A stretch of 64,000 nucleotides of DNA from an uncultured Clostridium sp. (GTDB lineage Bacteria > Bacillota > Clostridia > TANB77 > CAG-508). The notes under the pieces are model-generated. The model was not told the origin of the DNA. It was given only the letters and a program-made list of their open reading frames with translations, and searched no databases. Both the position numbers and the translations under genes were made by a program. Shown here in pieces: positions 520 to 20,798 of the stretch. The number at the start of each line of letters is the position of its first letter. Positions within the stretch are counted from its first letter, which is position 1. The stretch lies in contig USGK01000004.1 in assembly GCA_900554175.1 (NCBI GenBank), positions 1,957 to 65,956 of the forward strand, given 5' to 3'.

Positions 520-1800
520 CTAATGTTTCAAAGCAGTAATTGGAACTACATATACTCCATCTGGTCTTTGATAAGCAGCATTTGTTAGTCCACAAATCAC
601 ACACAAAACTGATGGTGCTTTTCCATTTTCATCTTCAATTTGTTTCTTTAAATTTAATAATTCATTTGCTGCTTTTTCAATTTGATTTGCTCCAAGTTTA
701 ATTTCAAATGCACACCACTGCCCATTTTCTAACTCTATAACACTATCAATTTCTTTATCTTGGTAATCTTGATAATGATAACATTTGGCATTAAAACTAT
801 CAGCATAAACTTTTAAATCTCTTTCTACCATTGCTTCGAATAAAAATCCAAATGTCTCTAAATCATTTATAAGTTTATTTTCTTCTTTAATATTTAATAA
901 AGAACATGCAATAGATGGATCTGCAAAATGCCTTTTTTCAGATTGTTTTACTCTTACAGAAGAACGAACGTTAGTTGAAAATGGCTCATCATTATCTAGT
1001 AAGAATAATCTATCTAATGCATTTAAATATGATGCTAATGTATCAATATCAATATCCTCATTATCTTTTTCGTTAATATCTTTCTTCAATGTCATATTCG
1101 ATACTGTTGTACTTTCGTTTCTTGCTAAGGATTTCAATAAAAGCTTAACTTTATGCTTATCTCTATTTATTCCATCTAGTCTATATAAATCATCATCAAC
1201 TATTAAATTAATATATTCTTCTATCGCTTCACTTGCATCTTTTGCAGAATAGTCTAAATTTGCTGGCCAGCCTCCTCTAATTATTAATCTTGCTAAATTT
1301 CTTAAATCTACTTCTCCAGTTGCTTTTCCTTTAAACTTATTATTACATAAATCTTCTAATGATATATCTCCTGTAGAATCTCCTGACTCATATAAACTCA
1401 TTGTTCTTAAATGTATTTTTCCATATCTTCCAGCACCGCTATGAGCTATTCCTTTCCTATTAGGAGTAGAAGAACCTGTTAAAATATATTGGCCTTTTAA
1501 ACCTGTTTTATCAACATCGATTCTAATTTCATCCCATAGATTTGTTGCTTCTTGCCATTCATCAATTAGTCTTGGTTTTTCTCCTTCCAAAACAATAGCT
1601 GGTGACATTTTTGCCAGTTCAACATTGTTTGATTGTTCTCCAGTAGTTTTATGCAATAAAATTTCACTATTAGAATGATACCTTCCAGCCCATGTTTTAC
1701 CACAATACTTTGGTCCTTCAATACTAATTGCACCAAATATTTTTAAATAGTGTTCTATTTTCTTATCAGCTATTCTCTTTCTATAATTCTCTATTTTCAT
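520..1800 (-). CDS. AAA+ ATPase of the COG1373 / DUF4143-type architecture
   Basis: 426 aa with N-terminal Walker A GPKYCGKT. The overall layout resembles the widespread ATPase+DUF4143 family, recognised from memory and not searched. Confidence 0.7.
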   Translation of the reverse strand: MKIENYRKRIADKKIEHYLKIFGAISIEGPKYCGKTWAGRYHSNSEILLHKTTGEQSNNVELAKMSPAIVLEGEKPRLIDEWQEATNLWDEIRIDVDKTGLKGQYILTGSSTPNRKGIAHSGAGRYGKIHLRTMSLYESGDSTGDISLEDLCNNKFKGKATGEVDLRNLARLIIRGGWPANLDYSAKDASEAIEEYINLIVDDDLYRLDGINRDKHKVKLLLKSLARNESTTVSNMTLKKDINEKDNEDIDIDTLASYLNALDRLFLLDNDEPFSTNVRSSVRVKQSEKRHFADPSIACSLLNIKEENKLINDLETFGFLFEAMVERDLKVYADSFNAKCYHYQDYQDKEIDSVIELENGQWCAFEIKLGANQIEKAANELLNLKKQIEDENGKAPSVLCVICGLTNAAYQRPDGVYVVPITALKH

Positions 1801-1838
1801 AGATAATCACCTCTTAAATATTAGCATTTCATAAATAT

Positions 1839-1867
1839 ATTTTACATCAATCCGTGATATTTGTCAA
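1839..1867 (-). promoter_or_regulatory. sigma-A-like promoter for the ATPase gene
   Basis: On the minus strand: TTGACA (rc of 1862-1867), 17-nt spacer, TAAAAT (rc of 1839-1844), about 40 nt upstream of the ATG at 1800. Confidence 0.5.
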
Positions 1868-1940
1868 TTTTAATCCGTGGCATTTTTTAATTTTGTTCCG
1901 TGTTTTTTTAATATTTTGTTCCGTGATTTTTATCTGTATA
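1849..1940. repeat. four tandem 23-bp direct repeats (core TCCGTG, CACGGA on the gene strand)
   Basis: TCCGTG starts at 1851, 1874, 1897 and 1920, an exact 23-bp period. The units are aatccgtgatatttgtcaatttt / aatccgtggcattttttaatttt / gttccgtgtttttttaatatttt / gttccgtgatttttatctgtata. The array overlaps the promoter above. Confidence 0.85.
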
Positions 1941-1948
1941 ATATTCTC

Positions 1949-2716
1949 TTATTCAAATATACTTTTAAATTCTAATGGAACGATATCTTCATACAATAAA
2001 ACAAATTGGTCATTTACCTGTCTATTATCATGATAATGTCCAAAATACCACTTTTTAAATTTACATTTCTCCATAATCTTTTGAAAATAGTCTGTTAAAT
2101 AATCTTTCTTATATTTTCCTGCTCCTAATATCGTTTGAATACTTGTAGGACAACAATGAGAAATTACATAGTCAACTTTATAATTCACTTTTTCTAAATT
2201 ATTTATACCATTTTGCATTTCTTCTTTAGTTGGTAATTCCAAATCCCACCATGAAAAATCTCTTATTCTAAAATATGCTTCTCTTTTTCGATATTTATAT
2301 ATTCTTTCTTCTTCGTCCAAATTTAATATTCCGTCTTGAATATCATGTGATTTAGCTCCCCCAAATGCAAAGAATTTTTTGCTATCAATATCAAAAATTT
2401 CTCCACGCATTAAATGTAAAATTGAATCTCTTATTTTATGTACTTTTCCTCCATGCCATTCTTCTACTGGATAATCATTATATAATCTTGTAAAGTTTTC
2501 ATGATTTCCATCTACAAATAAGGTGGTAAAATTCTTATTATTCAACCAGTCTAAAGCTTCTTTTTCTCTGCTACTTTCTTCTTCAAATGTCCATACTCCA
2601 CCAAAATCACCACATATTATTATATAGTCATTCTTTGTCATTTCAGCTTGTATGGGAAATTGGTCATCAGCTAATCTTGTGAAATCTGAATGGGTGTCTC
2701 CTGTTATATAAATCAT
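1949..2716 (-). CDS. metallophosphoesterase (calcineurin-like)
   Basis: Ordered motifs GDTHSD, GDFGG, GNHEN, SHCCP, GHYH. Confidence 0.85.
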   Translation of the reverse strand: MIYITGDTHSDFTRLADDQFPIQAEMTKNDYIIICGDFGGVWTFEEESSREKEALDWLNNKNFTTLFVDGNHENFTRLYNDYPVEEWHGGKVHKIRDSILHLMRGEIFDIDSKKFFAFGGAKSHDIQDGILNLDEEERIYKYRKREAYFRIRDFSWWDLELPTKEEMQNGINNLEKVNYKVDYVISHCCPTSIQTILGAGKYKKDYLTDYFQKIMEKCKFKKWYFGHYHDNRQVNDQFVLLYEDIVPLEFKSIFE

Positions 2717-2730
2717 GCTTACCTCCTCTA

Positions 2731-3819
2731 TTATTTCTTTTCTTTCACCTTTTTCAATAATTCTTTTAAGCTAATTGGTTTAAAACCAATTACATCTACT
2801 GAAACATTAATATGTAATTTTTCAGAATATAAATCTTCTGGATATTCCATTTCATTTGTTTCAGGATTTATTTTATGTAATGGATTATTATGAATATGTC
2901 CATGAACATTCACATATCCTTTAGGTATTTCTGTATCTTTTAAAGGCTTATGAGATAATATTAATTTTTCATTATTTAATTTTAATGGATTCTCAGGTAT
3001 AAATCCAAATCCTACATTTCTGAAAAATTCTTTAGATTTTTTATCATGATTTCCTCTTATTAAAAACTTTTTACCTTTTAATTTTGGTATTAATTCTTTC
3101 ATATCACTTTCGCTTGTTAATGCTACATCTCCTAAATGGAAAACTGTATCAAAGTCGGTAACTGTATTATTCCAATTTTCAATCAAAACTCTATTCATTT
3201 CTTCTACATCTTTAAATGGTCTATTGCAATATTTAATAATATTTTTATGATTGAAATGTGTATCTGATATAAAATATGTTTTTGCATTTTTTAATCCCTT
3301 ATAATATTCAAATATATCTGTGATTTCTTTTCCTCCAAAATACCTTTTATAATCATCTTTTTCGTTTTCTTTCCACCACTCAAATTTTTCTTTAATTTTA
3401 TTTCTTATTTCTCTAGTGTCTATATCCGAATTTTCCTCAATTGCAAATAAAACATCTATGTTATCACTTCCACAAATTATAAAATCATAATTTCTTATTT
3501 CATCATATCCATATTTATCTTTTACTTTTTCTATTTTTTTATCATAAGAAATGTATAAATAATCATCTTTAAATAAATGATTTTCTTTAATATATGTATA
3601 ATATAAATCTTTTACACCTGAAGTTTTTACAAATCCTGTCATATACCATATTGTTCTGCTTCGGATCTCTGTATAATCTTTTGGTAAATCTTCTTTTTTA
3701 ATTTTAGTATGATATCTTCCTTTTGAATATAGAAATTCGTTTTCAGTATCAAGTGTATTTCTCCAATTCTTTCTATCAAATTTACCTTTTGTATACCAAT
3801 TAGATTTTATTCTTGCCAT
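2731..3819 (-). CDS. two-domain protein: unknown N-terminal ~190 aa plus C-terminal metallophosphoesterase
   Basis: The C-terminal half carries SDTHFNH, LGD, GNHD and HGHIH. The N-terminal half has no recognisable motif. It lies 14 nt upstream of the next phosphoesterase gene. Confidence 0.8.
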   Translation of the reverse strand: MARIKSNWYTKGKFDRKNWRNTLDTENEFLYSKGRYHTKIKKEDLPKDYTEIRSRTIWYMTGFVKTSGVKDLYYTYIKENHLFKDDYLYISYDKKIEKVKDKYGYDEIRNYDFIICGSDNIDVLFAIEENSDIDTREIRNKIKEKFEWWKENEKDDYKRYFGGKEITDIFEYYKGLKNAKTYFISDTHFNHKNIIKYCNRPFKDVEEMNRVLIENWNNTVTDFDTVFHLGDVALTSESDMKELIPKLKGKKFLIRGNHDKKSKEFFRNVGFGFIPENPLKLNNEKLILSHKPLKDTEIPKGYVNVHGHIHNNPLHKINPETNEMEYPEDLYSEKLHINVSVDVIGFKPISLKELLKKVKEKK

Positions 3820-3926
3820 ATCATTCTTCCCCCTTCGGATTATTTATGTTTGTTTTTCGATATTATTATGTTTATTTTTTGAACATTGTATTGTAAAATA
3901 TTAGGCAGATTTCTCTGCCTTAAATA

Positions 3927-4238
3927 TTATTTTTCTTCTAACTTCCTTTTAAATTCAATAAATTCTAACACTTCTTTTTGTGATTTATTAGATAATTCAT
4001 CAAATGTTCTTGAAAACTTTGCAATTCTTTTTTCTCTATCCTCCCCTGTATATAATTCTTCCATAGATAATCCATATATCTTTGAAAAGAAATATAATTC
4101 CTCTGCTGTAATTTTTCTTGTTCCATTTTCAATATTTGTTATAACCAAACGTCTTACTCCTAGCATTCCAGCTAATTCTTCTTGTGTAAACCTTGTTTTT
4201 TCTCTTATTTTTTTTAATCTTCTACCTAAATTTTCCAT
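3927..4238 (-). CDS. XRE-family HTH transcriptional regulator
   Basis: N-terminal LKKIREKTRFTQEELAGMLGVRRLVITNIENGTRKITAEEL is a typical Cro/C1 HTH. Confidence 0.85.
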   Translation of the reverse strand: MENLGRRLKKIREKTRFTQEELAGMLGVRRLVITNIENGTRKITAEELYFFSKIYGLSMEELYTGEDREKRIAKFSRTFDELSNKSQKEVLEFIEFKRKLEEK

Positions 4239-4353: not shown

Positions 4354-5385
4354 TCAATGTACACACTCTTTTGCATTAATATCAAAAATTCTACACCCGC
4401 CATGACAAATATTAAAATAATTACATTTATTGCAATTATTATTATTTATCTTTTCTCTAATTACTCTAAATTCTTTACCGTCTCTCCAAACATCTTCAAT
4501 ATTCCTTTTATGTAGATCTTCCCCTTTAATTTTATTAATCATAAAAGAACATGGATACATCTTCATTTCCTCTGAAATAAATGCTGAAAATCTGCCTGCT
4601 TCACAAAAATCTACACTTTCTACATTTAAATCATTAATTTCTTTTACTAAGAAAGAAATTGCACAACTATCAAATCCTACTTTAAAAGGTAATGTTTTAT
4701 GATTTATTATATGAAAAAAATCACTTAATTTTTCAGTATTTTTTAAATTATATATATCATATTCTTTTTGTGGTTTATAATTCAGAAAAATTATTGCATT
4801 AATACCTTCAATTTCTTGTGGTAATTCATCTAATATTTTAATAGCTTTATCAATAGTTTTAGAGTTCAATATAAAATGTATATTTGTTTTTATTTTATTA
4901 TTAATAAGTTTCCTTATAGCTTTGAATGATTCCGTATATGGTTCATATAAACTTACTGCAACAGCACCACAAAATTCTTGACTTGCTTTTAGTACTTCTT
5001 CTGTTAACCCTCTTCCATTTGTTGTATATGATGGAATAATTCCAAACTCACGAGTTATTTTTACTAATTCTATAAAATTAGGATGTTGATTAGGATTTCC
5101 TCCTCCAAGAGCTACTTGCATAACTCCTAAGTCGCTTGCCTGTTTTATAATATTTTTATAATTCTCTATACTCATATGCTTGCCATTTACATTTGATTTT
5201 CTATAGCAAAAATCGCAGTTGTTTTCGCAATAATTTGTTATAGATATATCAAGCAATTCTGGACCTTCTAATCTCATAAATGGATCTATTCCATCATATC
5301 CATTTCTCATCATAAAACCATTTTTCTTATTAAAGATACAATAATATTTACTTTTCTTATTATTCTTTATTATATATCTGTTCAT
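4354..5385 (-). CDS. radical SAM enzyme with C-terminal SPASM/twitch-like Cys cluster
   Basis: CX3CX2C (ITNYCENNCDFCY) near residue 50, plus a C-terminal Cys-rich CNKCNYFNICHGGC. Confidence 0.85.
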   Translation of the reverse strand: MNRYIIKNNKKSKYYCIFNKKNGFMMRNGYDGIDPFMRLEGPELLDISITNYCENNCDFCYRKSNVNGKHMSIENYKNIIKQASDLGVMQVALGGGNPNQHPNFIELVKITREFGIIPSYTTNGRGLTEEVLKASQEFCGAVAVSLYEPYTESFKAIRKLINNKIKTNIHFILNSKTIDKAIKILDELPQEIEGINAIIFLNYKPQKEYDIYNLKNTEKLSDFFHIINHKTLPFKVGFDSCAISFLVKEINDLNVESVDFCEAGRFSAFISEEMKMYPCSFMINKIKGEDLHKRNIEDVWRDGKEFRVIREKINNNNCNKCNYFNICHGGCRIFDINAKECVH

Positions 5386-5802
5386 TAAATTTCACCTATT
5401 TCTCCATTCAGATAAAAATCATCTTCTACTATTAAAAAACTTTCCATACTAAAAAAAGCTTCTGTTTCTGTTCCTCCATTATCTGTACTCAAATTTCCCC
5501 AATATACATGATGTCCGTTTTTTTATATGTTCTTCTACTTTTTTTATTGTATCTTCCTCAAAATGTTCACTTTCTAAAAATTCTCTAATACTTTTTCCTT
5601 TTCCATATCTTTTAACATACTCAACTAAGTCTTCTTTAGCTTCATCTATAGCTTTAAATAATTCATCAAATATAAAATTTAATTTTGAATTACCTTGCAC
5701 CCCTATTTTATTCATAAATAACTTCTTTGAAAGTTCATCTTTAGATGCCAGTATAAAAGATGTTGAAGAACTATTAGTTACAAAATCTGTTTTTATTTTC
5801 AT
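5385..5802 (-). CDS. hypothetical protein, 107 aa in the zero frame, 138 aa if a +1 shift occurs at in-frame CGG (rc of 5515-5517)
   Basis: N-terminus MKIKTDFVTNSSSTSFI. Skipping the C of CGG continues as GHHVYWGNLSTDNGGTETEAFFSMESFLIVEDDFYLNGEIGEI. That reading ends at a TAA (5385-5387) overlapping the radical-SAM ATG (TAATG). Confidence 0.5.
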
Positions 5803-6212
5803 TTATCTAACCTCGCTATCAATATATTAAAATTCTTTATTAAATTTTCGTCATACTTAAAATAATAAGAAATGTTATAACTATTACTGTCTATATTCAA
5901 TTTGTATAAACTATAATCTTCATTACAATGTTTTATTAATCTCTTTATCTCATTATTATTTAACAACTCTTTATTATATAAATATTTTTCAAAACTTTCA
6001 TATTCCTGCATATAATACTTTGTATACATTTCTTTCATATCAACATAACCTGTAAATACACAATTATAAATTTTCTTTAAATATTTTTCTGCAAATGAAT
6101 TTTCTCTTACTTTAGATAATTTTAAAAATCTTTCTAAATATGTATTAAAATCAATATTATTAGGAGCTATACAATAAAAATCTTCACCAATTTTAATAAT
6201 CTTCATTGCCAT
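5799..6212 (-). CDS. hypothetical protein (137 aa, Tyr/Asn-rich)
   Basis: Its start overlaps the end of the protease-NTPase gene by 20 nt. Its stop overlaps the next start (ATGA). No motif recognised. Confidence 0.55.
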   Translation of the reverse strand: MAMKIIKIGEDFYCIAPNNIDFNTYLERFLKLSKVRENSFAEKYLKKIYNCVFTGYVDMKEMYTKYYMQEYESFEKYLYNKELLNNNEIKRLIKHCNEDYSLYKLNIDSNSYNISYYFKYDENLIKNFNILIARLDK

Positions 6213-8997
6213 CCTCCTTTTTCTTTAAATATTTTAATAATTCTTCTGAAATAGTATTTTTTTCTATTTTTGTATTGTTTTTATTATAAATCATTTGTAT
6301 TTTATCTTTAATCTCTTTCTTTTGTATTATATTTCTAGAAATTATATGATTCACAATATCCTTTATATTTTTATTAACTTCTTCTGGTACATTATTATTC
6401 ATCTCATCTAACGTTTCAATTGCCATATCTGGTAAATATTTTATATAAAGTTCCCAAAATTCATCTGTCTTCCATCTAATCACATTATATAAATAAATAG
6501 TTATCTTAAATAATTCTTTATAAATTCTCGAATTTTTTCTTCTCAGTGTGGATTTTAAGTTTTCAATCATTTTGTCATATGGCCATATTGCCTTAATGCC
6601 ATAACTATAATAATTATTAGAAAAATCTGGTTGAAATTTTGTTCTTATAAAGCTCTGGTATTTTTCATAATCTTTTTTACAAAATGAATCCATTATATTA
6701 TATAAATTTTTTATATTTAATTTTTTAAAATAAGAGATATCATATCTAAAAATTAAATCTAATATGATTTCATCCCTATTTTCACCATCATTTAAAAATT
6801 CATTTTTTATTATTCCAATATCTTCATCACTTATCTTTTCGTCAACTAAGTTAAATATATTATCCCAATAAACTATATTATAATCATCACTTGTTTTTAA
6901 TATTTCAACTAAGTCTTCACTATACATTCTTCCGATAAAGAACAAATAACCATATACACCTTCTTTAATGCTAACATTGGACTTTTTATTTAAATCTTTG
7001 ATAAATTTTTCTATCTGCTCTTTGTTAAACTTTCTTGCTATATACTTAGCCATATAAAAATCCCTAAATTCATCAAATGTGAAACTAATAACCGTTTTCT
7101 GTTCATTCAAAAAACCTTCTTTTATGATTATATCATCTTTTAAAACAACATCATTTAATATTAATTCATGCACTAATTCCAACTCTTCACTATTTAGAAT
7201 ATCTATAGGTATATTATAATACTGGCAATTATTAATCATATAATCTATTATTTTATCCAAAACATTAATATATAATTTTCCTGCTCCAAATTTTTTATTA
7301 TCATATTCCTCTATTTTCTTATCAATATACATTTGAAATGTATTGTACTTATAGATATCATACATATATAGCTGTTTTTTTCCTCTATTAGCTTCGCAAA
7401 AAAATCTTAACAGCAATGTGTCTCTAGATAATCTATCAAAAATATTTTTAGATAAGCTATACTTTCTTATTGTTATATCAAAAAAATTCAAATATCCCCA
7501 AAATATTCTGTCTTGAAAGACTTGGTTATAATTAAACATTTTAACTCTTTTAAAATACTTAGAATATATTCCTGTATCTATATTTTTAAATTTTTCATCA
7601 TAAAATTCACCTCTTGTTGTCATAATAACCTTTATAAAATTAAATCCATCAATTCTTTCTAAAAATCGCCTTACTACATTAGAAAAATCATCAAATTTAT
7701 TGTTTTCATTTAAACCATCTATTACTATTACAAATGGTTTAAATGTTTTTTCATATTCCTGTTTTAGCATATCTAAAATATATTCTATATTTTTATTATT
7801 TAAAAAACTAATAATTTTATCGCATACAAATTCATATAAATCTTTATCTACTTCATAAGCATTTATGTATAATACATAAAAATTCTTTTTTAATAAAAAA
7901 TTTTTTGTAAAGTCACAAATAAAATTAGTTTTACCTTGTCCTGCTCCATTTGTAAGAATCAAATATCTGTACCTTATATATTCTATATTTTCTTGAATAT
8001 CACTAAAATCAAATTGTAAAGCTCTATTGTAATAATCTCTTGTTTCTCTATCATAAAGATCCAATCCACTCTCTAATAGCTCTTTCATTTGATTTTTATC
8101 TTCGATAAGTTTTCTAGCTTTTTTAAGATCTTCTGATAATTCTTCTGAAGCCTTTAATAGTTCTTCATCATTTTCTATTTTATCTGTAATTCTAAAATTA
8201 ATAGTATCGCTAAAATTTTTCTTTAAAAACTCATTAACATCCTTATAATTCAATGATTGTATTTCATCTATTGCTTTATTTATAAACAATTTTGGCTCTG
8301 AAAAAAATCTCATATATTCTTTAAAATTATTTTGCTCTACAAATATTTCTGGAATATATTTACCACTTTTTATATTCTTTTGTATTTGTTGCTTTGTATA
8401 TATATCCATTTTTTGTTTAAAACTTTTTTTTATTCTATTAGATTCAATATATCTTTCATTAATGTATTGTACAAATGACGATACACTAGATACTTTAATT
8501 TCACTTGCCCTATCTGCTGAAATTCTTTGTTCTTGTACAATTCCTATTATCATTTCATCTACAATTACTGGTGAACCTGACAAACCTTTGTAGTTTATTG
8601 CTTGTCCAACACTTATATTAGATGCCTGCATATCAGAAATTCTTTCTTCTTCAATTATACTATGAGTTCCTATACCTTTAATATAATGCATTATCTGTTC
8701 TTTAGTTATATATCCATATATTTCCCATTTATCATCTTCATTTGGAGTATAATCTTGAGTCAATAAATGATTAATGTTCTCATTAACTGGCCTTTCTAGT
8801 TTTAAAAGTCCTATAATTTCATTGTCGTTATTTGGATATTCTTTAGCTTTCAAAATGTCCCCATTATGTAATTCAATTTTATATTCTTCTTGATGCATTA
8901 AATGACTTGCTGTTAATATTAAATCATTATCTATTAAAATCCCTGTTCCTACATCACTGGTTCCAATTATTTTTACTATATACTTAGGAAATTCCAT
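6193..8997 (-). CDS. trypsin-like serine protease fused to a NACHT/STAND-type P-loop NTPase with a long helical C-terminal region
   Basis: The N-terminus has S1-like catalytic contexts TASHL (His) and GLSGSPV (Ser). The centre has Walker A GAGQGKT and a NACHT-like Walker B FVIVIDGLNE. About 450 aa of helical tail follow. Confidence 0.8.
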   Translation of the reverse strand: MEFPKYIVKIIGTSDVGTGILIDNDLILTASHLMHQEEYKIELHNGDILKAKEYPNNDNEIIGLLKLERPVNENINHLLTQDYTPNEDDKWEIYGYITKEQIMHYIKGIGTHSIIEEERISDMQASNISVGQAINYKGLSGSPVIVDEMIIGIVQEQRISADRASEIKVSSVSSFVQYINERYIESNRIKKSFKQKMDIYTKQQIQKNIKSGKYIPEIFVEQNNFKEYMRFFSEPKLFINKAIDEIQSLNYKDVNEFLKKNFSDTINFRITDKIENDEELLKASEELSEDLKKARKLIEDKNQMKELLESGLDLYDRETRDYYNRALQFDFSDIQENIEYIRYRYLILTNGAGQGKTNFICDFTKNFLLKKNFYVLYINAYEVDKDLYEFVCDKIISFLNNKNIEYILDMLKQEYEKTFKPFVIVIDGLNENNKFDDFSNVVRRFLERIDGFNFIKVIMTTRGEFYDEKFKNIDTGIYSKYFKRVKMFNYNQVFQDRIFWGYLNFFDITIRKYSLSKNIFDRLSRDTLLLRFFCEANRGKKQLYMYDIYKYNTFQMYIDKKIEEYDNKKFGAGKLYINVLDKIIDYMINNCQYYNIPIDILNSEELELVHELILNDVVLKDDIIIKEGFLNEQKTVISFTFDEFRDFYMAKYIARKFNKEQIEKFIKDLNKKSNVSIKEGVYGYLFFIGRMYSEDLVEILKTSDDYNIVYWDNIFNLVDEKISDEDIGIIKNEFLNDGENRDEIILDLIFRYDISYFKKLNIKNLYNIMDSFCKKDYEKYQSFIRTKFQPDFSNNYYSYGIKAIWPYDKMIENLKSTLRRKNSRIYKELFKITIYLYNVIRWKTDEFWELYIKYLPDMAIETLDEMNNNVPEEVNKNIKDIVNHIISRNIIQKKEIKDKIQMIYNKNNTKIEKNTISEELLKYLKKKEDGNEDY

Positions 8998-9009: not shown

Positions 9010-10173
9010 TTAAATTATTAATTCGTTACTAATAATACATTCATAATTATATTTATTTTTTTCTTCTTCTTCTTTTAGTATTCGTATATTATCTATGTCA
9101 TAATTAAAAATAAGTTTTTTATTATTTTTATTATTTATTATAATATCAGCTAATATGCTTTTGTCTGGATGTCCATATTTTTTTCCATCTGTAGATATGA
9201 TATAATTACTAGCAATAATATTTTCCATTATTTCACGATTATTCCAATAACTTCCGTGATGAGGAATTTTTAGAATGTCAACCTTAAGTATTTTCTCAAT
9301 GTTATGCTTTTTTTCAAAATATAAATCTCCTGTAAATACCATTTTAATATCATTAAATTTTATTAGGATACCTATTGATACATCGTTAACTATAGAATAT
9401 ATACGTTTTTTATGATTAAGCTTTAACCAGTTTATAATATCTCTGTCTATCTGATCAGATATTGTTTCTGTAGTTTCAATACATTCTTCATTATTTAACA
9501 TCAACGTTTCAAAAAAATCTATAAATTTTTCACTTTTATTAATCTCATAGTCTTTTCCAAATAATACTTCTAATTGTTTCTCTAGATATTTGGTATATCT
9601 TTCTATTTTTAATTTACTTGGTGAAATTACATCTATAATGGCATTTCCCATCTTTATATTTTCAGTTTGTACTACTATGTTATCTATAAACTGTATATTT
9701 ATTGGATAATTTAACTTATTACAAATATATTCAAAAGATTTTAAGTCATTTGCACTTACATAATTGTTGTCTTCATCAAAAGAATCCATTTCATTATATG
9801 CTTTTATTATTCGCATTTTTTTTAATTGTCTTTGATTTATATTATTAGATAACTTCTTTTGAAAAACTAAATTTTTAAAGCCATTAAACCATATATTTTC
9901 AATTTTTATAATATTTGGATTATTATAATCACCATTTTCTTCTAGCAACCTTTTTGCTCCACCAATATGATCCTTATCAATATGAGTTATTACTAATAAA
10001 GTAATCTTTTTTCCTATTTTTTTCAATTCTATAAGTAATGGCTTTAAATAATTATAATACGTTTCTTTAAATCCTGTATCAATTAATATACATTCATTAT
10101 TATTAAATTCAATTAAAAAACAATCCCCTGCATTCGCTGGTAAAATATGAATTTTAGCATTCCAATCTGCCAT
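9010..10173 (-). CDS. MBL-fold metallo-hydrolase (ComEC-type beta-lactamase fold)
   Basis: ITHIDKDHIGGA is an HxDxDH variant of HxHxDH. A C-terminal PHHGS and GHPD are also present. The gene ends 12 nt before the protease-NTPase start. Confidence 0.8.
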   Translation of the reverse strand: MADWNAKIHILPANAGDCFLIEFNNNECILIDTGFKETYYNYLKPLLIELKKIGKKITLLVITHIDKDHIGGAKRLLEENGDYNNPNIIKIENIWFNGFKNLVFQKKLSNNINQRQLKKMRIIKAYNEMDSFDEDNNYVSANDLKSFEYICNKLNYPINIQFIDNIVVQTENIKMGNAIIDVISPSKLKIERYTKYLEKQLEVLFGKDYEINKSEKFIDFFETLMLNNEECIETTETISDQIDRDIINWLKLNHKKRIYSIVNDVSIGILIKFNDIKMVFTGDLYFEKKHNIEKILKVDILKIPHHGSYWNNREIMENIIASNYIISTDGKKYGHPDKSILADIIINNKNNKKLIFNYDIDNIRILKEEEEKNKYNYECIISNELII

Positions 10174-10234: not shown

Positions 10235-11371
10235 TTATTTTTCATGACTTTTAAAATAATTATAAGCTTTAACTAGACAATATAATTCTCTAATGTTCGA
10301 AATATTAGCATTAAAAGGTTTAATTCTATCACTAAAATGATTAATCAATATCATTTCCATATCTTCATTATTCCAATACTCATATAATTTAGTATAATAG
10401 TAACTTGAATTTTTAGTAAAATATTCTACTTTACTATCTATAATATTTTCAACCTCATTTATGTTTTCTACTTTTTCAGGATTTTGTAACGCATTATATA
10501 AATATGGTATTTGATTAATTAATACATTTTTAAACTTTTCATACAATTTCCTATTTTGTTTATCTGTTATTTTTGTATTTAATAACATTTTTACATCTTT
10601 TATTGCAACATTATATCTACCATTTAATCTTTTTTCATCTTCTTTTATTAAAACATTTAATTGTTTAATAGGCTTATCTATTTTTTGTATTTTTATTTTC
10701 GATAATTCTTTTTTATATGCATTGATCATTACTAAAAAATCATTATAAATATTATCTAAATAATTAATACATTTATCCAAGTACTTTTCTATATCTTTAA
10801 AGCTAAATCCGAATTCGAGTTGCTCCCATGATTTTTTCTTATCTTTTTTCCATAGCAATGTATAATAATCCCAATTTTTTACTTTTCCATAAAGTTTATC
10901 AGGCAAAGAATTATATGGAGTTGGATAAGTTGAAACAATAAATTCATTATTATCTTTAAGCTTTGTTGGATGTGCTCCAAAAATAGCTCTAATATTTTTA
11001 AAGTGCTCCCAATCATCCTTTTCTTTATCTTTAAAAATTTCACTACTTTTATAAAACAGTCTAGCTTTTTCATTATCTTTCGCTATTTTGTTAATATCGT
11101 TTATTCCTTCAATAACTATATCAACCGATGAAAGAAATAAATAAACTTCTCCCCAATTATAATCTTCTTTATTTTCTTTTAACAAATTCTCACTATTTAG
11201 ATAACTCTCAACTGTTCTAAACCAGTGTACTGCTGAACAAATAATATTCCATTTGTCATCAGAGTATTTTTTATCGAGCACTAATAAAATATCATCTTGT
11301 TTTTCACCATTAATAAATTCACTTAAGCAATTTAGTTTTCTTAATCTTTCCTCATACTTCATTTGGCACAC
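10235..11371 (-). CDS. hypothetical helical protein (378 aa), possible HEPN-like Rx5H motif
   Basis: NIRAIFGAHPT fits Rx4-6H. No other motif recognised. Its start overlaps the upstream gene by 20 nt. Confidence 0.5.
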   Translation of the reverse strand: MCQMKYEERLRKLNCLSEFINGEKQDDILLVLDKKYSDDKWNIICSAVHWFRTVESYLNSENLLKENKEDYNWGEVYLFLSSVDIVIEGINDINKIAKDNEKARLFYKSSEIFKDKEKDDWEHFKNIRAIFGAHPTKLKDNNEFIVSTYPTPYNSLPDKLYGKVKNWDYYTLLWKKDKKKSWEQLEFGFSFKDIEKYLDKCINYLDNIYNDFLVMINAYKKELSKIKIQKIDKPIKQLNVLIKEDEKRLNGRYNVAIKDVKMLLNTKITDKQNRKLYEKFKNVLINQIPYLYNALQNPEKVENINEVENIIDSKVEYFTKNSSYYYTKLYEYWNNEDMEMILINHFSDRIKPFNANISNIRELYCLVKAYNYFKSHEK

Positions 11372-12341
11372 ACCCTTGTTTTAAAAAACTTTCTAAAAAT
11401 TCAATAACAGCAACTGGATTTTCTTTTATAATCTTATCCAATTTTTTCATTTCTTCTTGAAGTTGTTTTAAATCATTATTACTTTGTTTAATATAATCCT
11501 TATTTATATCTTCATATAGTAAACCACTATACCTACTTAAGTATTCTTTTGTATATTTTTCTCTATTAATATCTGATATTAAAATATACCATCCTACAAA
11601 CATATACTCATATCCAATTGAATTACAATCATCATTAGTAATATACTTTAAACAACAATTCAATAAAACTTCTAAAAAGTACATATTTTGTTTGGCTATC
11701 ATTAAAAATAAATCCTCATCATTATTCAAAGTACCTTCAACCATTTCATTTACAACTAAAGTACTGTGTGTAAATAAACATAACTTATCATAATACTCAT
11801 CTAACAACTTCTGAATCTGCCTATTACTCATATCTCCAAACATGTCTTTATCTATCATTTTTAATTTTGCTTTAAAAAGATTTCTAAGTTTTTGCTGTTT
11901 AGTATAAAATCTATCTTCATCTCTCAATCCTAATTTTTTAAATTCTTCATATACGTTAGAATCTAAATATATCATCATTCCCATAACAAGATTTTCAAAA
12001 GCAGATCTTATTAATGTGTTTGAATCTACTAGACTATTATTTTTAACTAATTTTTGCACATTCTTTATAGTCATGTATGATTGATTTAACAAATTACAAC
12101 TTTCTTTAGGCAAGTTCTTATCATCCATTAAATATAATTTTTTAATATTTTTACTAGTACTTCTTCTTAAAGGAACTATGCATTTGCTTTTACAAAGATT
12201 TCTAAAAATTTTCTTTAATTCAATTAATCGATCTTTAGTTAAAAATTCCAATAGTTTATATAATTTTTCTTCCCTATTTTCAGTACCAAGTGTATTTAAA
12301 ATATCTTCTGCTGTTATATCTATTTCATTATCTTTTCTCAA
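11352..12341 (-). CDS. hypothetical helical protein (329 aa)
   Basis: TTG start with AAGGAG 8 nt upstream. No firm motif (IRSAFENLV ... LCLFTHST). First gene after the res terminator-like hairpin. Confidence 0.5.
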   Translation of the reverse strand: MRKDNEIDITAEDILNTLGTENREEKLYKLLEFLTKDRLIELKKIFRNLCKSKCIVPLRRSTSKNIKKLYLMDDKNLPKESCNLLNQSYMTIKNVQKLVKNNSLVDSNTLIRSAFENLVMGMMIYLDSNVYEEFKKLGLRDEDRFYTKQQKLRNLFKAKLKMIDKDMFGDMSNRQIQKLLDEYYDKLCLFTHSTLVVNEMVEGTLNNDEDLFLMIAKQNMYFLEVLLNCCLKYITNDDCNSIGYEYMFVGWYILISDINREKYTKEYLSRYSGLLYEDINKDYIKQSNNDLKQLQEEMKKLDKIIKENPVAVIEFLESFLKQGCVPNEV

Positions 12342-12414: not shown

Positions 12415-15030
12415 TTATAAATTACTAATCCACTTATCTATTGCTTCTCCAAATTCTTTTCTACGATACTCCTCATTGTAAAATGGCAATCCTATTATCT
12501 TATATTCGTTTCCATAATCAAACATTGGATTAGTATATGCATTTTCTTCCATTTCTAACATAAACTCCTCTTTCCATTTATCTTCTTCTAACAGATTATT
12601 TCCTTTAGGCTCAGCATATATTTGATGTGTAATATAATTATCGTTTGTTTTCTTCCTAACAAATAATAAGAAATCTGGTTCAAATCTTTCACCATGTTCA
12701 AAACTGTATATTGCTAAATCTGAAATTCTTTCATTTCTTACTATATAATATTCTAATCCTTTTTCTTTCAATTTTGGTTCAATGTCAGTTTTAAAATATT
12801 TTATAAATAGTTTTTCTTCACTTGTACCATAATTATCATTAAATACATACCATGGTTCATTTGTTAGATCAAGTTTGTACTCTGTATTTCTGCAATTATT
12901 TTGGGAGTCACCTTTTCCACCATTTTCATCTATTTTTGATAAGTATATCACCTTATCCTTTAGCACTGCTTTAAGTTGCATTGGTTCAAATTGTTTAGTG
13001 CCTTCAAATTCCTGCTTAATTGATGTCACATGATTTGAAATATTATTGAAAGCTCTTATACAAGCATTTCTCAAATCTTTTCCCTTAATATCATTTAAAT
13101 ATGTAATTTCAATAACTGAATTTCCAAGATATTCGTCAGATGTTAAGAATTCTTTCATTGTCTTAACATTAGGGTATTTACTTTTTATAACATTGAATTT
13201 TAACTCATTATATCTTTCTGCAGCCCCAATCAAAATATTATAATCGATATCTTTAAACTTAAATGTACTAATTTTGCTTTCAATATTTAATTCATTATTT
13301 ATGTTTTCTCCCATTAAAGCAAACACGTTTCCCTGATTTGATTTTACGGTATATCTATATACCTTATTTTTTATACTATCCTCAATGTCAATAACATCTT
13401 TTCTGTCCTTAGGAATACGTTTATTGGCATATACTAATGCTTTATTATAAAATTGTGATTCTTTAAATTCTTCCTTCAATTTATATTCTAGCTTTATTGG
13501 ATCCTTATCTTGTAACCCTGTTTGTATTAATGCTTGTCTTAATTCTGCTATATATTTAGAATCATTTCTACTGTGGAAAAACATAGTTTCTAATATTCTC
13601 AATTCATTTGATAAATCATTATCATATTTTCTTTTATATTTTTCTTGTTCTTCGTTTATTTTAAAAGGACAATATCTTGCCCCACGTCCTATTAGCTGTG
13701 CTTCTTTTATTGTGTAATTTCCAATTTTACCAGCAGTTCCACTTCCTTGTCTGGTATCATATAGTCTAACAATATCAAACAAATTTAAAACATCCCAACC
13801 TTCATTAAGCATATCTACAGTAAATATAACACGTATTGGATTATCTTTATCTTCCAAGGAATTAACTAATAATTGTTTTTCTCTATTATTATCCGTAGTT
13901 TCATTCATGATTATTGCTGTTTCTTTTGTAAATGAATTTTGTATACTATGTTCTAATAATTCAAATGTCGAATCTTTACTTTTAAAATAATCTAAAGCTT
14001 TATTTAATATTTCAATATTGGAATTGTATAAATTCATTAATTCATAGCTATTTAATTTTTCCAAATTATTAAAGAAAACATCATAGAATTCTTTTGATTC
14101 TTTTATTTTTTGAGATTTTAACATTACTACAGGTTTCAAATTAATCTTATTATCATTGAAAAGATATTTTCTATATTCGCTTAATACGAGAGCCATTAAT
14201 GTTCTATCCCACAATTCACTTTCTGTAGCAAAGTTTTGAAAATCCTTAGTATATCCACTTTCTCTAAAATTCTTTAATGGATAATTATAAATTATTTTAT
14301 CCCTATATTTGACTTCAACATTTCTATCCTTTAAATCAGCTGTTGCTGTGAATTCAAGCATTATACTATCTCTATTTTGAGCTAGTGCATTTGTAACAGA
14401 ATATTCCCAACTATTTCTTTCGTTTTCTTCTGTTTTGGTTTCTTTTTTGGTAAGCGTATTTATATGATGACTTTCATCTGAAATAAATACTATTTTATTA
14501 TCCTCAAAATCTTTATATGTAAGTGCATTTTCTCTAGCTGTGAATAAATCCAAATGTAATTTCTGTGTTGTTGTAAAACAAATTTGTATATCCTCTTCTA
14601 ATGGATCTACACTAAAATTTTCTACTTTTTTTATTTTTATTTTATTTCCTAAATAACTAATCTCCTCTGAAAAAAGATATTTGCTAGATGCTGTATCTGT
14701 AAAGTTATCTATTGTTTTTTCTACAACATTAGATTGATTTACAAAGAAAAGAAACTTTCTATATCCTTTTGTATATAAATAAAGCATTAATCCTGCCATA
14801 ATAACAGTTTTTCCACTTCCTGTTGCCATATGAAAAAGAGTATGTTTTTGCTTGTTCTTATGAATATTTTCATTTTCAAAATAAGTTACAAAATATTTAA
14901 GTGCAGAAATTTGATAATCACGTAAAACTATATTATCAGATAATCCCTCGTTTATTATAGTTGGCAATTCATTAAGCATTCCCATTTCTTCTAATACTTC
15001 TATTGTTTCATATAAATATTTATTTTCCAT
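12415..15030 (-). CDS. res: Type III restriction enzyme Res subunit (SF2 helicase plus C-terminal PD-(D/E)xK)
   Basis: Walker A MATGSGKT, DEAH-type box ISDESHH, and a C-terminal EPDF...AEPKG nuclease-like motif. It starts 5 nt after mod. Confidence 0.9.
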   Translation of the reverse strand: MENKYLYETIEVLEEMGMLNELPTIINEGLSDNIVLRDYQISALKYFVTYFENENIHKNKQKHTLFHMATGSGKTVIMAGLMLYLYTKGYRKFLFFVNQSNVVEKTIDNFTDTASSKYLFSEEISYLGNKIKIKKVENFSVDPLEEDIQICFTTTQKLHLDLFTARENALTYKDFEDNKIVFISDESHHINTLTKKETKTEENERNSWEYSVTNALAQNRDSIMLEFTATADLKDRNVEVKYRDKIIYNYPLKNFRESGYTKDFQNFATESELWDRTLMALVLSEYRKYLFNDNKINLKPVVMLKSQKIKESKEFYDVFFNNLEKLNSYELMNLYNSNIEILNKALDYFKSKDSTFELLEHSIQNSFTKETAIIMNETTDNNREKQLLVNSLEDKDNPIRVIFTVDMLNEGWDVLNLFDIVRLYDTRQGSGTAGKIGNYTIKEAQLIGRGARYCPFKINEEQEKYKRKYDNDLSNELRILETMFFHSRNDSKYIAELRQALIQTGLQDKDPIKLEYKLKEEFKESQFYNKALVYANKRIPKDRKDVIDIEDSIKNKVYRYTVKSNQGNVFALMGENINNELNIESKISTFKFKDIDYNILIGAAERYNELKFNVIKSKYPNVKTMKEFLTSDEYLGNSVIEITYLNDIKGKDLRNACIRAFNNISNHVTSIKQEFEGTKQFEPMQLKAVLKDKVIYLSKIDENGGKGDSQNNCRNTEYKLDLTNEPWYVFNDNYGTSEEKLFIKYFKTDIEPKLKEKGLEYYIVRNERISDLAIYSFEHGERFEPDFLLFVRKKTNDNYITHQIYAEPKGNNLLEEDKWKEEFMLEMEENAYTNPMFDYGNEYKIIGLPFYNEEYRRKEFGEAIDKWISNL

Positions 15031-15035: not shown

Positions 15036-16781
15036 TTACACTCCTTCATAAAAAGATTTTGTAAATGATTTTTCGTCTTCTGTTATTTTATAATTCATAT
15101 CATCAATATCACTATAATTAATGTATAATTTATTCTTATCTATTAATGAAATTAGTGCTTTTTTCTTTTCCTCCAATGATAAATTATTGAATTCTTCATT
15201 TGCTTCTTTAATTTCATTTTTTGTAATATAAGATATTATCCTATCATCATTAATAATTTTTTCTTTTATTTCATCAATGCTATTCTCATTTGCATCTAAT
15301 ACATAGTTTACTAGCTCTTGTCCGTTTTCTTTTAATTCGCAATAAACAAAATCTCCTCCACCAATCCAATTAACATCTTTTGATATTCCTGCTTTTTCTC
15401 CATTTAAAACCTTTTGCATTCTAGAAATAATAATATCTATTTGTGATTGCATCTGCTCAATACCTATGTATCTTCTATTTAATTTGTGAGCTGTAGCAAT
15501 TGTAGTTCCTGTTCCTAAATGATAATCTAATACTAAATCGCCTTCATCTGTTGACATTTCAATAATTCTTTTTAATAATTCTTCTGGTTTTTGTCCTCCA
15601 GAAAATTCTTTTATTACTTCAACATCAGCTTTATTTCCATCTTTATATGCCATTGGATTTGCATATACTTGTTGTATATCATTCCATACTGTAGATAATG
15701 GAACTCCCTTGCTTTCATCTAAATATTGTCTAGTCCATACAGCATTTCCATTTTCATCTTTTCCTCTTTGACGTCTTTGATATTTTCTACCATCTTCATC
15801 TTCATATTTAAACCAATCTTTTATGTATTTCTCAGAATATGGAATGTATACTCTATTCTGTTTTCTTTGTTGATAATTTTTAGCATAATGTAAAATATAG
15901 TCATGAATATTAACTGGCTTCGGAGTTGCAGCACGTCCTCCAGAAGGTGATCCATATGCCCATATTAACTCTTCTACAAAATTATCTTTTCCAAAAATTT
16001 CATCTGCTAAAACCTTCAAATAATGTGATTGATTAACGTCTATATGTATAAATATATTTCCATCTTGTGTTAATAAATCTTTCGCTATCGTTAATCTATT
16101 TTTCATAAAAGTCAACCATGTTGACCTATTAAATTTGTCATTATAATTAAAGCTATCATTTCCTGTATTAAAAGGTGGATCTATATAAATACAATTAACT
16201 TTACCATTATATTTTTTTAATAATGAAGTTAGTGCTATAAGATTATTTCCTTTTATAATTAAATTATCATTTTCATTAAACTTAGATAGACTTATATTTC
16301 CATCTTTTGTATATTTCTTTATATTAGTAAAAACTTTAGGTGAGAGCATTCTTGAAATCTCATCACTAGCAATCGTTTCATTAAAGAATATCTCATCACG
16401 TTTTTGATCCTCCTTTGTCTGTCCTCCCTCTAAAACACAATCTTTATATGGAAAATCTATCACAATATCATTATTTTGACTTATAAATTTATAATTAGAA
16501 GCTAATCCTATTTTATTTGTATATTTTGTATAGCTATCTGGTAAAAATTCTTTTTCTTCTACAAACCAGGCAAATCCCTGCTTATCAAAAACATAATTAT
16601 TATTAATCTCAACAAAAAATTTTTTCTTTGTAGCCTCATTTTTTAATAATGTTTCTATTAATTCTTTATTCATAGTCATAGCATCACTATATACATTAGC
16701 TTTTAATAAGTTTCCATCTTCAGATAAATATCTTTCATTACTTTTTAATAAATCTACTACTATATCATAAATATTTTTCAT
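15036..16781 (-). CDS. mod: Type III DNA methyltransferase Mod subunit (beta-class N6A/N4C MTase)
   Basis: Motif IV IYIDPPFNTG precedes the motif I-like LDYHLGTGTT, which is the beta-class order. It lies directly upstream of res. Confidence 0.9.
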   Translation of the reverse strand: MKNIYDIVVDLLKSNERYLSEDGNLLKANVYSDAMTMNKELIETLLKNEATKKKFFVEINNNYVFDKQGFAWFVEEKEFLPDSYTKYTNKIGLASNYKFISQNNDIVIDFPYKDCVLEGGQTKEDQKRDEIFFNETIASDEISRMLSPKVFTNIKKYTKDGNISLSKFNENDNLIIKGNNLIALTSLLKKYNGKVNCIYIDPPFNTGNDSFNYNDKFNRSTWLTFMKNRLTIAKDLLTQDGNIFIHIDVNQSHYLKVLADEIFGKDNFVEELIWAYGSPSGGRAATPKPVNIHDYILHYAKNYQQRKQNRVYIPYSEKYIKDWFKYEDEDGRKYQRRQRGKDENGNAVWTRQYLDESKGVPLSTVWNDIQQVYANPMAYKDGNKADVEVIKEFSGGQKPEELLKRIIEMSTDEGDLVLDYHLGTGTTIATAHKLNRRYIGIEQMQSQIDIIISRMQKVLNGEKAGISKDVNWIGGGDFVYCELKENGQELVNYVLDANENSIDEIKEKIINDDRIISYITKNEIKEANEEFNNLSLEEKKKALISLIDKNKLYINYSDIDDMNYKITEDEKSFTKSFYEGV

Positions 16782-18511: not shown

Positions 18512-18540
18512 CTTTTCACCTCCATTATTTTTTATAAAAA

Positions 18541-18599
18541 GGGGATTGGGGAATTTTCCCCATATTGAATTTCGAGCTGAAGAAATTCATTGCTTGCTA
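18541..18599. other. candidate oriT: G-rich palindrome, then a 7-bp-stem hairpin, then ATTGCTTGCTA (repeat copy A)
   Basis: GGGGATTGGGGAATTTTCCCC (18541-18561); gaatttc (18567-73) / gaaattc (18582-88); ATTGCTTGCTA (18589-99). It lies 30 nt upstream of the relaxase start. Related copies are at 61953 and 63713. Confidence 0.5.
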
Positions 18600-18708
18600 A
18601 TTCATAAAATACCCTATTTTTGTACCTCATTATGTTCTTATTACTACATAATAATAAAGCAAAAAGTACCTGAATCATTTACTTAATCCAGGCACTTTTA
18701 ATACATAT

Positions 18709-19014
18709 TTAAATTACATATCGAGTATAAAATCTTCTTTTAAAATTGATTCTTCTTTCTCTTTCACGTTCACTTATTACTCTACATGGTAATGTTTTAT
18801 ACCCTGATAATTTCATTGCAGTGAATCTATTAAAACAGTTATCTAGTATATAATCATCTCCTATTTTAGTAACTATAAATGGAATTATTCTCTCTCTTTT
18901 TTGCAATGATACTTGATAATTTTTCATCATTTCATCATCTAATAATCTAACATCTTTATTAATTATTTTTATTTTTTCTACTGGTATTTCAACCACTTTT
19001 TTATAATCTTTCAT
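18709..19014 (-). CDS. small ParB N-terminal-domain-like protein
   Basis: 101 aa. The pattern VEIPVEKIKI...RERIIPFIVTK...YILDNCFNRFTAMKLSG resembles the ParB/Srx fold. Weak, memory-based. Confidence 0.45.
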   Translation of the reverse strand: MKDYKKVVEIPVEKIKIINKDVRLLDDEMMKNYQVSLQKRERIIPFIVTKIGDDYILDNCFNRFTAMKLSGYKTLPCRVISERERERRINFKRRFYTRYVI

Positions 19015-20787: not shown

Positions 20788-20798
20788 AAGGAGGCTAT

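Follow-up and report, generated by a model that had tools for sequence, protein, structure and literature searches.

The closest known system to the locus described here is the KpAvs2-Avap1-Avap2 operon, in which KpAvs2, an Avs2 protein with a nuclease effector, needs the small protein Avap2 (Bechon et al. 2024, PMC11564622). HHpred matches Avap2 to DUF6375, and Avap2 binds the helical bundle that separates the effector from the NTPase of KpAvs2; the radical S-adenosylmethionine (SAM) protein Avap1 is needed by KpAvs2 for some phages; modified nucleotides were not detected for Avap1, and the roles of both accessory proteins were left open (PMC11564622). In the HXS anti-phage system, the radical SAM (rSAM) enzymes HxsB and HxsC mature the protein effector HxsA (PMC13128918). 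Here we analyze a stretch of 64,000 nucleotides (nt) from an uncultured Clostridium sp. (contig USGK01000004.1, positions 1,957 to 65,956), hereafter the window, in which the gene for an rSAM enzyme with a SPASM domain follows the gene for a small protein with an N-terminal NSSS motif (the NSSS protein). The two genes are the 3' half of a conserved operon with the core order STAND - p137 - NSSS - rSAM/SPASM, where p137 is a second small protein. We hypothesize that the operon is an Avs-like STAND defense cassette in which the rSAM/SPASM enzyme would modify the N-terminal peptide of the NSSS protein and the small proteins would be partners of the STAND protein, a reading that we consider somewhat probable. 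We infer the defense function, the modification of the NSSS protein and the binding of the small proteins to the STAND protein from comparative sequence analysis and from the analogy with KpAvs2. The cassette is not a member of the KpAvs2 family and may work alike.

The cassette was surveyed in one genome per species, with open reading frames (ORFs) labeled by iterative hidden Markov model searches, and 80 of the 118 confirmed loci were kept. The four genes follow each other in this order, on one strand and with overlapping junctions, in about 65 of the 80 species-level loci. The median gap between p137 and NSSS is -4 nt, and the gap between NSSS and rSAM is mostly -1 to -23 nt; gaps of +93 nt are confined to two frameshifted loci, L012 and L013. 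Among the hosts are Clostridia, the Negativicutes Sporomusa and Veillonella parvula, Bacteroidota, Nitrospirota, Verrucomicrobiota, Chloroflexota, Deltaproteobacteria, Campylobacterota, Sulfurimonas, Fimbriimonadaceae and Methanosarcina, and the cassette is also carried by large plasmids of Agrobacterium, Rhizobium and Rhodobacter. The pairing of enzyme and small protein, which the initial annotation had drawn from this one locus, is thus conserved and translationally coupled across loci, so that the refuting condition named there, a pair confined to this locus, does not apply, but that annotation had missed that the conserved unit comprises four genes including STAND, and that p137 is a paralog of the NSSS protein. 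A literature search for the motif strings and for combinations of SPASM, STAND and anti-phage terms found no description of the NSSS motif or of the cassette. The annotation had also missed a similar, experimentally validated operon built from other protein families, KpAvs2-Avap1-Avap2 (PMC11564622). The cassette is widespread and undescribed, and it adds two uncharacterized protein families, of which NSSS alone counts at least 339 sequence clusters.

The cassette is inserted between a BREX methylase and PglZ/BrxL at one locus, between hsdR and hsdM/hsdS at another, and between ruvA and ruvC in a Verrucomicrobium, while in the window it adjoins a type III restriction-modification (RM) system. 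The flanks across loci are enriched in GmrSD, Eco57I, MmeI, type I RM, AbiEii-like ATPases and Schlafen/BrxL, and the element that holds the cassette in the window carries a relaxase, an IstB-like/replisome-organizer pair and a tyrosine integrase. This context and the domain logic of the proteins suggest that the cassette is cargo of phage-defense islands.

The STAND protein of the window starts with a trypsin-like protease, with its His in TASHL (residues 29-33) and its Ser in GLSGSP (138-143), followed by a conserved linker that includes KYIPEIFVE (213-221), the Walker A motif GAGQGKT (351-357), the Walker B motif VIVIDGLNE (423-431) and a helical C-terminal region. Its best PADLOC match was Avs2 (9.4e-17, residues 239-670 to profile positions 241-672), and PADLOC Avs1b matched residues 7-207 (1.9e-14); NACHT, nSTAND and NPHP3_N matched weakly in its orthologs. 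The core (residues ~190-850) retains 26-27% identity between phyla, and the N-terminus is exchanged: among 57 proteins examined, it is a trypsin-like protease in 20, a SMEK_N nuclease in seven, a CAP12/Pycsar TIR domain in three, and a PNP_UDP phosphorylase, DUF4062 (TIR-like) or DUF7379/lipase domain in one each. Such shuffling of N-terminal effectors on a constant NTPase is the signature of Avs/NLR-like immune proteins, and by its P-loop motifs, its variable N-terminus and its setting among RM and BREX genes the protein is classed here as a STAND/NLR-like antiviral ATPase.

The window clade adds a gene for a metallo-beta-lactamase (MBL)-fold hydrolase upstream of the four-gene core. The MBL gene and a trypsin-type STAND N-terminus co-occur in 29 loci, with three discordant loci, one of them at a contig end. 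In the PADLOC scan the hydrolase matched LmuA (3e-66) and Avs1a (8.5e-53), and it is the obligatory partner of the trypsin-type STAND variants and probably the second effector component. An MBL-fold gene directly upstream of a STAND gene with an N-terminal trypsin-like protease recalls AVAST type 1. Avs1a is matched by the MBL protein of the window (2e-72) and Avs1b by the protease domain. However, the NCBIfam models scored 244 bits against a cut-off of 420 for Avs1a and 43.8 against 1500 for Avs1b, the latter matching the protease domain alone; moreover, the STAND protein has half as many residues as Avs1b, and its NTPase is closer to that of Avs2 than to that of Avs1b. Among 5,027 PADLOC and 18,950 NCBIfam models, none matches p137 or the NSSS protein, and therefore no model of an Avs1-associated partner covers them. 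AVAST type 1 has the effector pair of MBL and protease-STAND in common with the cassette, and not the accessory genes.

The KpAvs2 operon and the cassette both combine an Avs-type STAND protein, in which an N-terminal effector and a helical linker precede the NTPase, with a co-operonic rSAM protein and a small protein of about 130 residues, and both are located in defense islands. We located an operon of the KpAvs2 type on the Vibrio harveyi plasmid p345-185 (L096, 3692-9129), with genes for an rSAM protein of 319 amino acids, a DUF6375 protein of 130 and a STAND protein of 1,361, in this order. This operon lies on a conjugative plasmid directly beside the qnrVC6 and dfrA resistance cassettes, and STAND matches of its type recur in about ten Vibrio plasmids. 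Its Avap1-like rSAM protein and the window enzyme are 26% identical over the N-terminal half only (190 residues, E 1e-12), a stretch that takes in the residues ahead of the cluster motif. The Avap1-like protein lacks a C-terminal Cys cluster, whereas the window enzyme has a full SPASM domain. The gene order also differs (rSAM - small protein - STAND in the KpAvs2 type, STAND - p137 - NSSS - rSAM in the window), as does the number of small proteins, one in the KpAvs2 operon against two paralogs in the cassette. Avs2-type STAND proteins have about 1,350-1,360 residues and a long sensor domain (a deletion of 1066-1352 implies at least 1,352 residues for KpAvs2; PMC11564622), whereas the window protein has 934; the NCBIfam Avs2 model (NF041813) gave it 31 bits against a cut-off of 1000, and the NTPase of the Vibrio STAND protein aligns with it weakly (18% identity, E 1e-4).

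An identity of the NSSS protein with Avap2/DUF6375 was rejected, as hhalign of a 27-sequence DUF6375 alignment gave probabilities of 0.4% against NSSS and 0.2% against p137, and hmmscan with PF19902 (DUF6375) found no match among 107 NSSS or 57 p137 sequences. What the two small proteins share is the character of the N-terminal extremity, which in both families is the most conserved part, begins with MKI and is modeled as disordered. The DUF6375 family has an invariant N-terminus MKIWQSYGAEHS... (M1, K2, W4, G8, E10, H11 and S12 in alignment A8), and in an AlphaFold2 model of a DUF6375 protein, residues 1-11 have a pLDDT below 50 and precede a small alpha/beta domain. This parallel suggests that each of the two rSAM proteins has the N-terminal peptide of its small partner as its target.

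The class of the window enzyme is consistent with such a role. It carries the cluster motif C53-x3-C57-x2-C60 (CX3CX2C, residues 53-60, nt 5206-5229), whose three cysteines are each 100% conserved among 74 family members, and the SAM-binding motif GGGNP (nt 5092-5106). The Pfam models Radical_SAM (64 bits, cut-off 29.5) and SPASM (24.0, cut-off 21.5) and TIGR04085 SPASM (40.5, cut-off 27) all recognize it. Eight SPASM cysteines (C241, C261, C279, C318, C321, C327, C331 and C341), with CNKCNYFNICHGGC of this cluster encoded at nt 4393-4434, are 93-100% conserved in the same 74 proteins, so that both the CX3CX2C motif and the C-terminal Cys cluster named in the initial annotation are borne out. 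These cysteines make up a full SPASM domain, in which both auxiliary clusters would be fully ligated, and full Cys ligation of both is typical of oxidative SPASM enzymes that modify proteins or peptides. The best solved relative is SuiB, the streptide Lys-Trp cross-linking enzyme (5v1q; E 1.6e-12, residues 45-337 to SuiB 129-445), followed by PqqE, and the top NCBIfam matches include MftC, PqqE and WgkB. The alignment begins at residue 129 of SuiB, past its N-terminal region. Further SPASM rSAM enzymes that modify proteins or peptides are anSME and QhpD.

With SuiB, PqqE and MftC the enzyme shares CX3CX2C, a SPASM domain with seven or eight cysteines and an adjoining gene for a putative substrate. 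It differs from these maturases of peptides that are ribosomally synthesized and then modified post-translationally (RiPPs) in that the putative substrate, at about 135 residues, is a folded protein with the conserved peptide at its N-terminal extremity, not a short leader-core precursor, that a RiPP recognition element (RRE) or PqqD partner is lacking, and that the module is attached to a STAND immune ATPase. Pfam-type scans and comparison with solved structures found neither an RRE nor a PqqD domain, be it in the enzyme or in its neighbors. HXS offers a precedent for rSAM-dependent maturation of a protein component in phage defense, although it uses two rSAM enzymes and a periplasmic effector with His-Xaa-Ser repeats and has no STAND protein (PMC13128918); the sequence of the NSSS protein, unlike HxsA, has neither HxS repeats nor a signal peptide. 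The enzyme does not group with a housekeeping maturase, as all NCBIfam equivalog scores are far under their cut-offs.

If the enzyme instead made a small molecule, i.e., a viperin-like nucleotide analog or an AhbD/NirJ-like cofactor with an antiviral or signaling role, the small proteins would be regulators or immunity factors. Viperins are an established rSAM defense, and the window enzyme, itself in a defense setting, has weak matches in its rSAM core to PADLOC pVip (~1e-14) and to NCBIfam NirJ2/AhbD (~1e-16 to 1e-17). These matches are confined to the generic rSAM core, with 43 bits against 180 for viperin and 64 against 500 for NirJ2; a full SPASM domain is missing in viperins; such a product would not explain why the gene is strictly coupled to that of a protein with an invariant peptide; and modified nucleotides were not detected for the analogous Avap1 (PMC11564622). 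We therefore hold small-molecule synthesis to be very unlikely. An identity with viperin was rejected (NCBIfam viperin_w_prok, NF038283, 43.3 bits against a cut-off of 180, with residues 49-163 alone matched), as was a viperin-like nucleotide-modifying enzyme, in agreement with the earlier view that the architecture is not viperin-like; pVip differs further in that the window enzyme is obligatorily coupled to a small protein.

Homologs of the enzyme also occur outside cassettes. Escherichia phage Lw1 (L095, 2396-3550) and about 150 T4-like phages of Klebsiella, Enterobacter, Cronobacter and Citrobacter each carry a full-length rSAM/SPASM protein with 27-30% identity to the window enzyme (phrog_7293, E 3e-31); no NSSS or p137 homolog was found in these phages, and a counter-defense role of the phage protein is possible. 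The matches on E. coli and Salmonella plasmids (H8-H13) proved to be unrelated stand-alone genes. In many Firmicutes loci, a gene for a protein of about 310 residues lies directly 3' of the rSAM gene or overlaps it; in L014 (11426-12391) its C-terminus is a Pfam PF21648 domain (M1E1E6-like "integron cassette protein"; PDB 3fy6). PF21648 was matched by 16 flanking genes, in L014 and 15 other Firmicutes loci, and this gene is absent from the window locus.

The N-terminus of the NSSS protein is where the comparative evidence for an enzyme-substrate relationship accumulates. A profile search of 1.84 billion cluster representatives returned 339 NSSS clusters at E<=1e-10 and 2,335 at E<=1e-3. Among the 150 matches listed, complete proteins have 122-148 residues and a few truncated ones are shorter; nearly all have the motif from residue 1 onward. 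Family members are 31-50% identical overall, yet the alignment of 107 sequences has invariant columns at M1, K2, D6, F7, T9, N10, S11, S12, S13, T14 and F16. Across 77 distinct starts of the gene, no change was seen at F7, N10, S11, S12 and T14, while synonymous positions in the N-terminal codons use all available codons. This free variation indicates selection on the peptide, and an RNA or DNA element as the cause of the conservation of the 16 codons was rejected on the same ground. S11 is always encoded by AGY and S12/S13 always by TCN; as a switch between the two Ser codon families needs a non-Ser intermediate, this pattern implies that these serines were never replaced in the history of the family. 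AlphaFold2 models the protein with a pLDDT of 85.8 overall and below 50 for residues 1-10, and the N-terminal peptide is thus predicted to be flexible. Neither NSSS nor p137 could be placed in a significant family by scans of Pfam, NCBIfam, PHROGs and PADLOC, even with E values up to 10 allowed, and no solved structural relative of the NSSS fold was found.

p137 aligns with the NSSS protein over 110 columns (hhalign probability 98.2%, E 5.7e-14), and the gap in the alignment falls exactly on the DFVTNS segment. p137 lacks the DFVTNSSS motif, has a conserved motif of its own, Y-x2-YY-x2-EY-x-SF-x2-FLY, and is a motif-less paralog of the NSSS protein. On one Anaerolineae contig (L036:401-1720), the STAND C-terminus and p137 are encoded in one ORF. 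This single case reflects either the loss of a stop codon or a natural fusion, and the latter would suggest that STAND and p137 interact.

Seven loci in metagenome-assembled genomes (MAGs) of termite-gut Deltaproteobacteria (L050, L060, L072, L080, L083, L086 and L089) lack both STAND and p137 and have two to four tandem NSSS genes each. The rSAM gene adjoins the NSSS array in five of the seven, and none was found in the other two, one of which ends at a contig edge. Comparative evidence favors the NSSS protein as the substrate of the rSAM enzyme, because the two genes are strictly adjacent and translationally coupled, because one enzyme can be accompanied by several putative substrates, because the terminal peptide is invariant and predicted to be flexible, because the paralog p137 lacks exactly the motif, and because the enzyme belongs to a SPASM class that modifies peptides or proteins. 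The initial annotation had proposed the small protein as a substrate or a specificity partner, and these comparisons favor that proposal.

Several observations weigh against the proposed cassette mechanism. The enzyme has no RRE and just ~45 amino acids ahead of CX3CX2C, and these features would also suit a reading in which the NSSS protein and p137 are not substrates but an adaptor or chaperone of the PqqD/RRE or MftB kind that presents the STAND protein or a phage or host protein to the enzyme. Two paralogous small proteins could form a heterodimeric adaptor, and in the KpAvs2 system a small protein does bind the STAND protein (PMC11564622). Nevertheless, the two to four NSSS genes per enzyme in the STAND-less loci suit a substrate better, the most conserved segment is modeled as a flexible terminal peptide and not as a folded binding surface, and no third conserved candidate substrate was found in the STAND-less loci. 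An adaptor role therefore seems rather unlikely to us. The NSSS fold has no solved relative, so that an enzymatic or ligand-binding role of the motif is possible. Family-wide conservation is >=90% for C118 of the FC-x-DSF motif and for W138 at the C-terminus, but the window clade has Ser for C118 and Ile or Phe for W138, and therefore details may differ there. In the window the NSSS gene is frameshifted, and the local copy may be non-functional.

The STAND-less loci also speak against the cassette mechanism, since the genes around them are of the housekeeping type (MCP, AbrB, MTHFR, VWA), and by this context the NSSS/rSAM pair need not be defensive itself. It could be a general protein-maturation or RiPP-like module, with the STAND protein as a mere regulator or an unrelated neighbor, as the deltaproteobacterial arrays with rSAM and without STAND would suggest. 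That the STAND gene is part of the same overlapping operon in about 65 loci, carries classic immune effector domains, and is embedded with the cassette in RM/BREX operons and mobile elements makes a non-defense module improbable to a high degree.

For the preferred reading, an Avs-like STAND cassette with a modified small protein, we propose the following order of events. By analogy with Avs proteins, the STAND protein would be an Avs/NLR-like switch that senses infection, oligomerizes and fires its exchangeable N-terminal effector, which in the window would be the trypsin-like protease working with the MBL hydrolase. The rSAM/SPASM enzyme would modify the flexible N-terminal peptide of the NSSS protein (F7, N10, S11, S12, T14, F16), with a cross-link or a C-H oxidation of Ser, Thr or Asn as candidate chemistry. 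The modified NSSS protein, probably paired with p137, would then bind the STAND protein and license or restrain it, in parallel with Avap2, the small protein that binds KpAvs2. A more specific version, which we put forward tentatively and consider possible without being likely, is that the enzyme installs a new post-translational modification on the peptide MKIKTDFVTNSSSTSF and that the modified NSSS protein with p137 is the licensing or guard component of the STAND switch. As such a modification would depend on SAM, on Fe-S clusters and on reducing power, and as SAM-dependent RM/BREX operons surround the cassette, a guard role on SAM supply or redox state is possible; the cassette could sense phage attack on the SAM supply, e.g., by SAM lyases, or on the redox state.

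The frame of the NSSS gene in the window is broken by one extra A in a run of seven (A7 at 5518-5524). Skipping one base past the A-run restores the 138-residue frame, ending in ...EDDFYLNGEIGEI, and the frame-corrected protein is 100% identical to the database protein P0001. Contig L007 has the same DNA with A6 for A7 as the sole difference over 431 nt, and its 138-residue NSSS gene ends exactly on the rSAM start codon; therefore, the intact gene is real and the window has a one-base insertion. The partner protein of 138 residues posited earlier was thus correct, while its route, a +1 shift at CGG, gives way to the simpler account of a one-base A insertion allele, as no signal specific to the CGG codon at the frame break was found. 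The A6 allele is present in four assemblies (L007-L010). Besides the window, A7 is found in two GTDB MAGs, from water deer (L012) and goat (L013), and the metagenome contigs L093 and L094, on different single-nucleotide polymorphism (SNP) backgrounds with 92-99% identity to the window. Closely related strains thus carry either the intact A6 or the broken A7 allele, and the latter is common in nature.

The window ORF 5479-5802 would yield a protein without the three C-terminal strands of the 138-residue form, and as written the module would be switched off or reliant on rare frame recovery. We favor A7 as an ordinary, possibly phase-variable homopolymer indel. Programmed recoding by a +1 frameshift at AAA-CGG, or a phase-variable switch for full-length NSSS, would account for the presence of A7 in five independent assemblies on different SNP backgrounds against A6 in four, for the 21 member sequences that the truncated 107-residue forms P0017 and P0019 stand for, for the frame that stays open 3' of A7, and for the rSAM gene that is intact at the A7 loci where it is visible (window, L012 and L013). 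CGG, the codon met in the broken frame, has 0 uses in 5,239 codons of 13 neighboring genes, so that a slippery Lys codon would be followed by a "hungry" one. However, the NSSS frame is intact in all other members of the family, reading in a wrong frame would be expected to meet rare codons anyway, runs of A7 and A8 are frequent in these genes of 25% GC, and no stimulatory element was seen; on balance, we regard recoding or a dedicated switch as unlikely.

In the window the genes are packed on the minus strand from ~16.8 kb down to 4.35 kb (Table 1). The junctions listed in the initial annotation are all present: p137 and NSSS join by ATGA at 5799-5802, STAND and p137 overlap at 6193-6212, and in the corrected frame the NSSS stop TAA overlaps the rSAM ATG as TAATG (5383-5387). 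The rSAM gene is preceded by its own Shine-Dalgarno sequence, AGGTGA. A promoter scan of this 25% GC DNA was uninformative (79 sites against 80 expected).

Table 1. Features of the cassette and its upstream neighbors, in window coordinates
Feature	Position	Strand	Basis
Type III RM Mod	15036-16781	-	Pfam/NCBIfam/PADLOC scans
Type III RM Res	12415-15030	-	Pfam/NCBIfam/PADLOC scans
Two overlapping ORFs without assigned family, 329 and 378 amino acids	11352-12341 and 10235-11371	-	
MBL-fold hydrolase, 387 amino acids, Avs1a-like	9010-10173	-	PADLOC and NCBIfam matches
STAND/NACHT-like NTPase, 934 amino acids, N-terminal trypsin-like protease	6193-8997	-	PADLOC Avs2 and Avs1b, Walker motifs
p137, 137 amino acids, paralog of the NSSS protein	5799-6212	-	Alignment and hhalign
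NSSS small-protein gene, 138 amino acids when intact, frameshifted in the window	5385-5802	-	Frame-corrected reading
Annotated ORF of the NSSS gene, 107 amino acids, starts MKIKTDFVTNSSSTSFI	5479-5802	-	
NSSS codons 1-16 (MKIKTDFVTNSSSTSF), invariant N-terminal peptide, proposed site of rSAM modification	5755-5802	-	
A7 homopolymer (T7 on the + strand) carrying the one-base insertion	5518-5524	-	Intact alleles have A6
Radical SAM/SPASM enzyme, 343 amino acids	4354-5385	-	Pfam, NCBIfam

The two ORFs at 10235-12341 yielded just a weak DUF5677 match in family scans. They are kept in the closest relatives alone (L007, L012 and L013) and are missing from L011 and all other cassette loci, and they may be a separate two-gene defense candidate. 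On the 3' side of the rSAM gene, the minus strand carries an XRE-type helix-turn-helix (HTH) gene (3927-4238), two calcineurin-like metallophosphatase genes (2731-3819 and 1949-2716) and an AAA_14/DUF4143 ATPase gene (520-1800). These genes at 520-4238 are present in L007 and not in more distant cassettes; no terminator-like site was found between the rSAM and HTH genes, the sole one being at 3903-3920. On the other side of the defense genes, the stretch 17129-24046 holds genes for a MobA/VirD2 relaxase (17129-18511), an IstB/DnaC-like ATPase (19097-19918), a phage replisome organizer (19890-20420), a DUF6076 protein and a tyrosine integrase (22844-24046). With a relaxase, a replication pair and an integrase next to them, the defense genes at 1-16.8 kb look like cargo of an integrative mobilizable element.

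STAND/NLR-like proteins are central to bacterial, plant and animal immunity, and their tuning by accessory proteins is largely unexplained. The cassette presents a second, more widespread and sharper version of the accessory-protein problem posed by KpAvs2, as it brings together a well-understood enzyme class and a candidate substrate with an invariant N-terminal target of 16 residues. It also has built-in contrasts, i.e., the motif-less paralog p137 as a natural negative control and natural versions without STAND. As neither PADLOC v2 (2023) nor NCBIfam has a model for the NSSS protein and p137, current annotation would leave both unnamed. If the proposed guard logic is true, Avap1 and Avap2 of KpAvs2, the latter with an invariant flexible N-terminus of its own, would be an independent instance of it.

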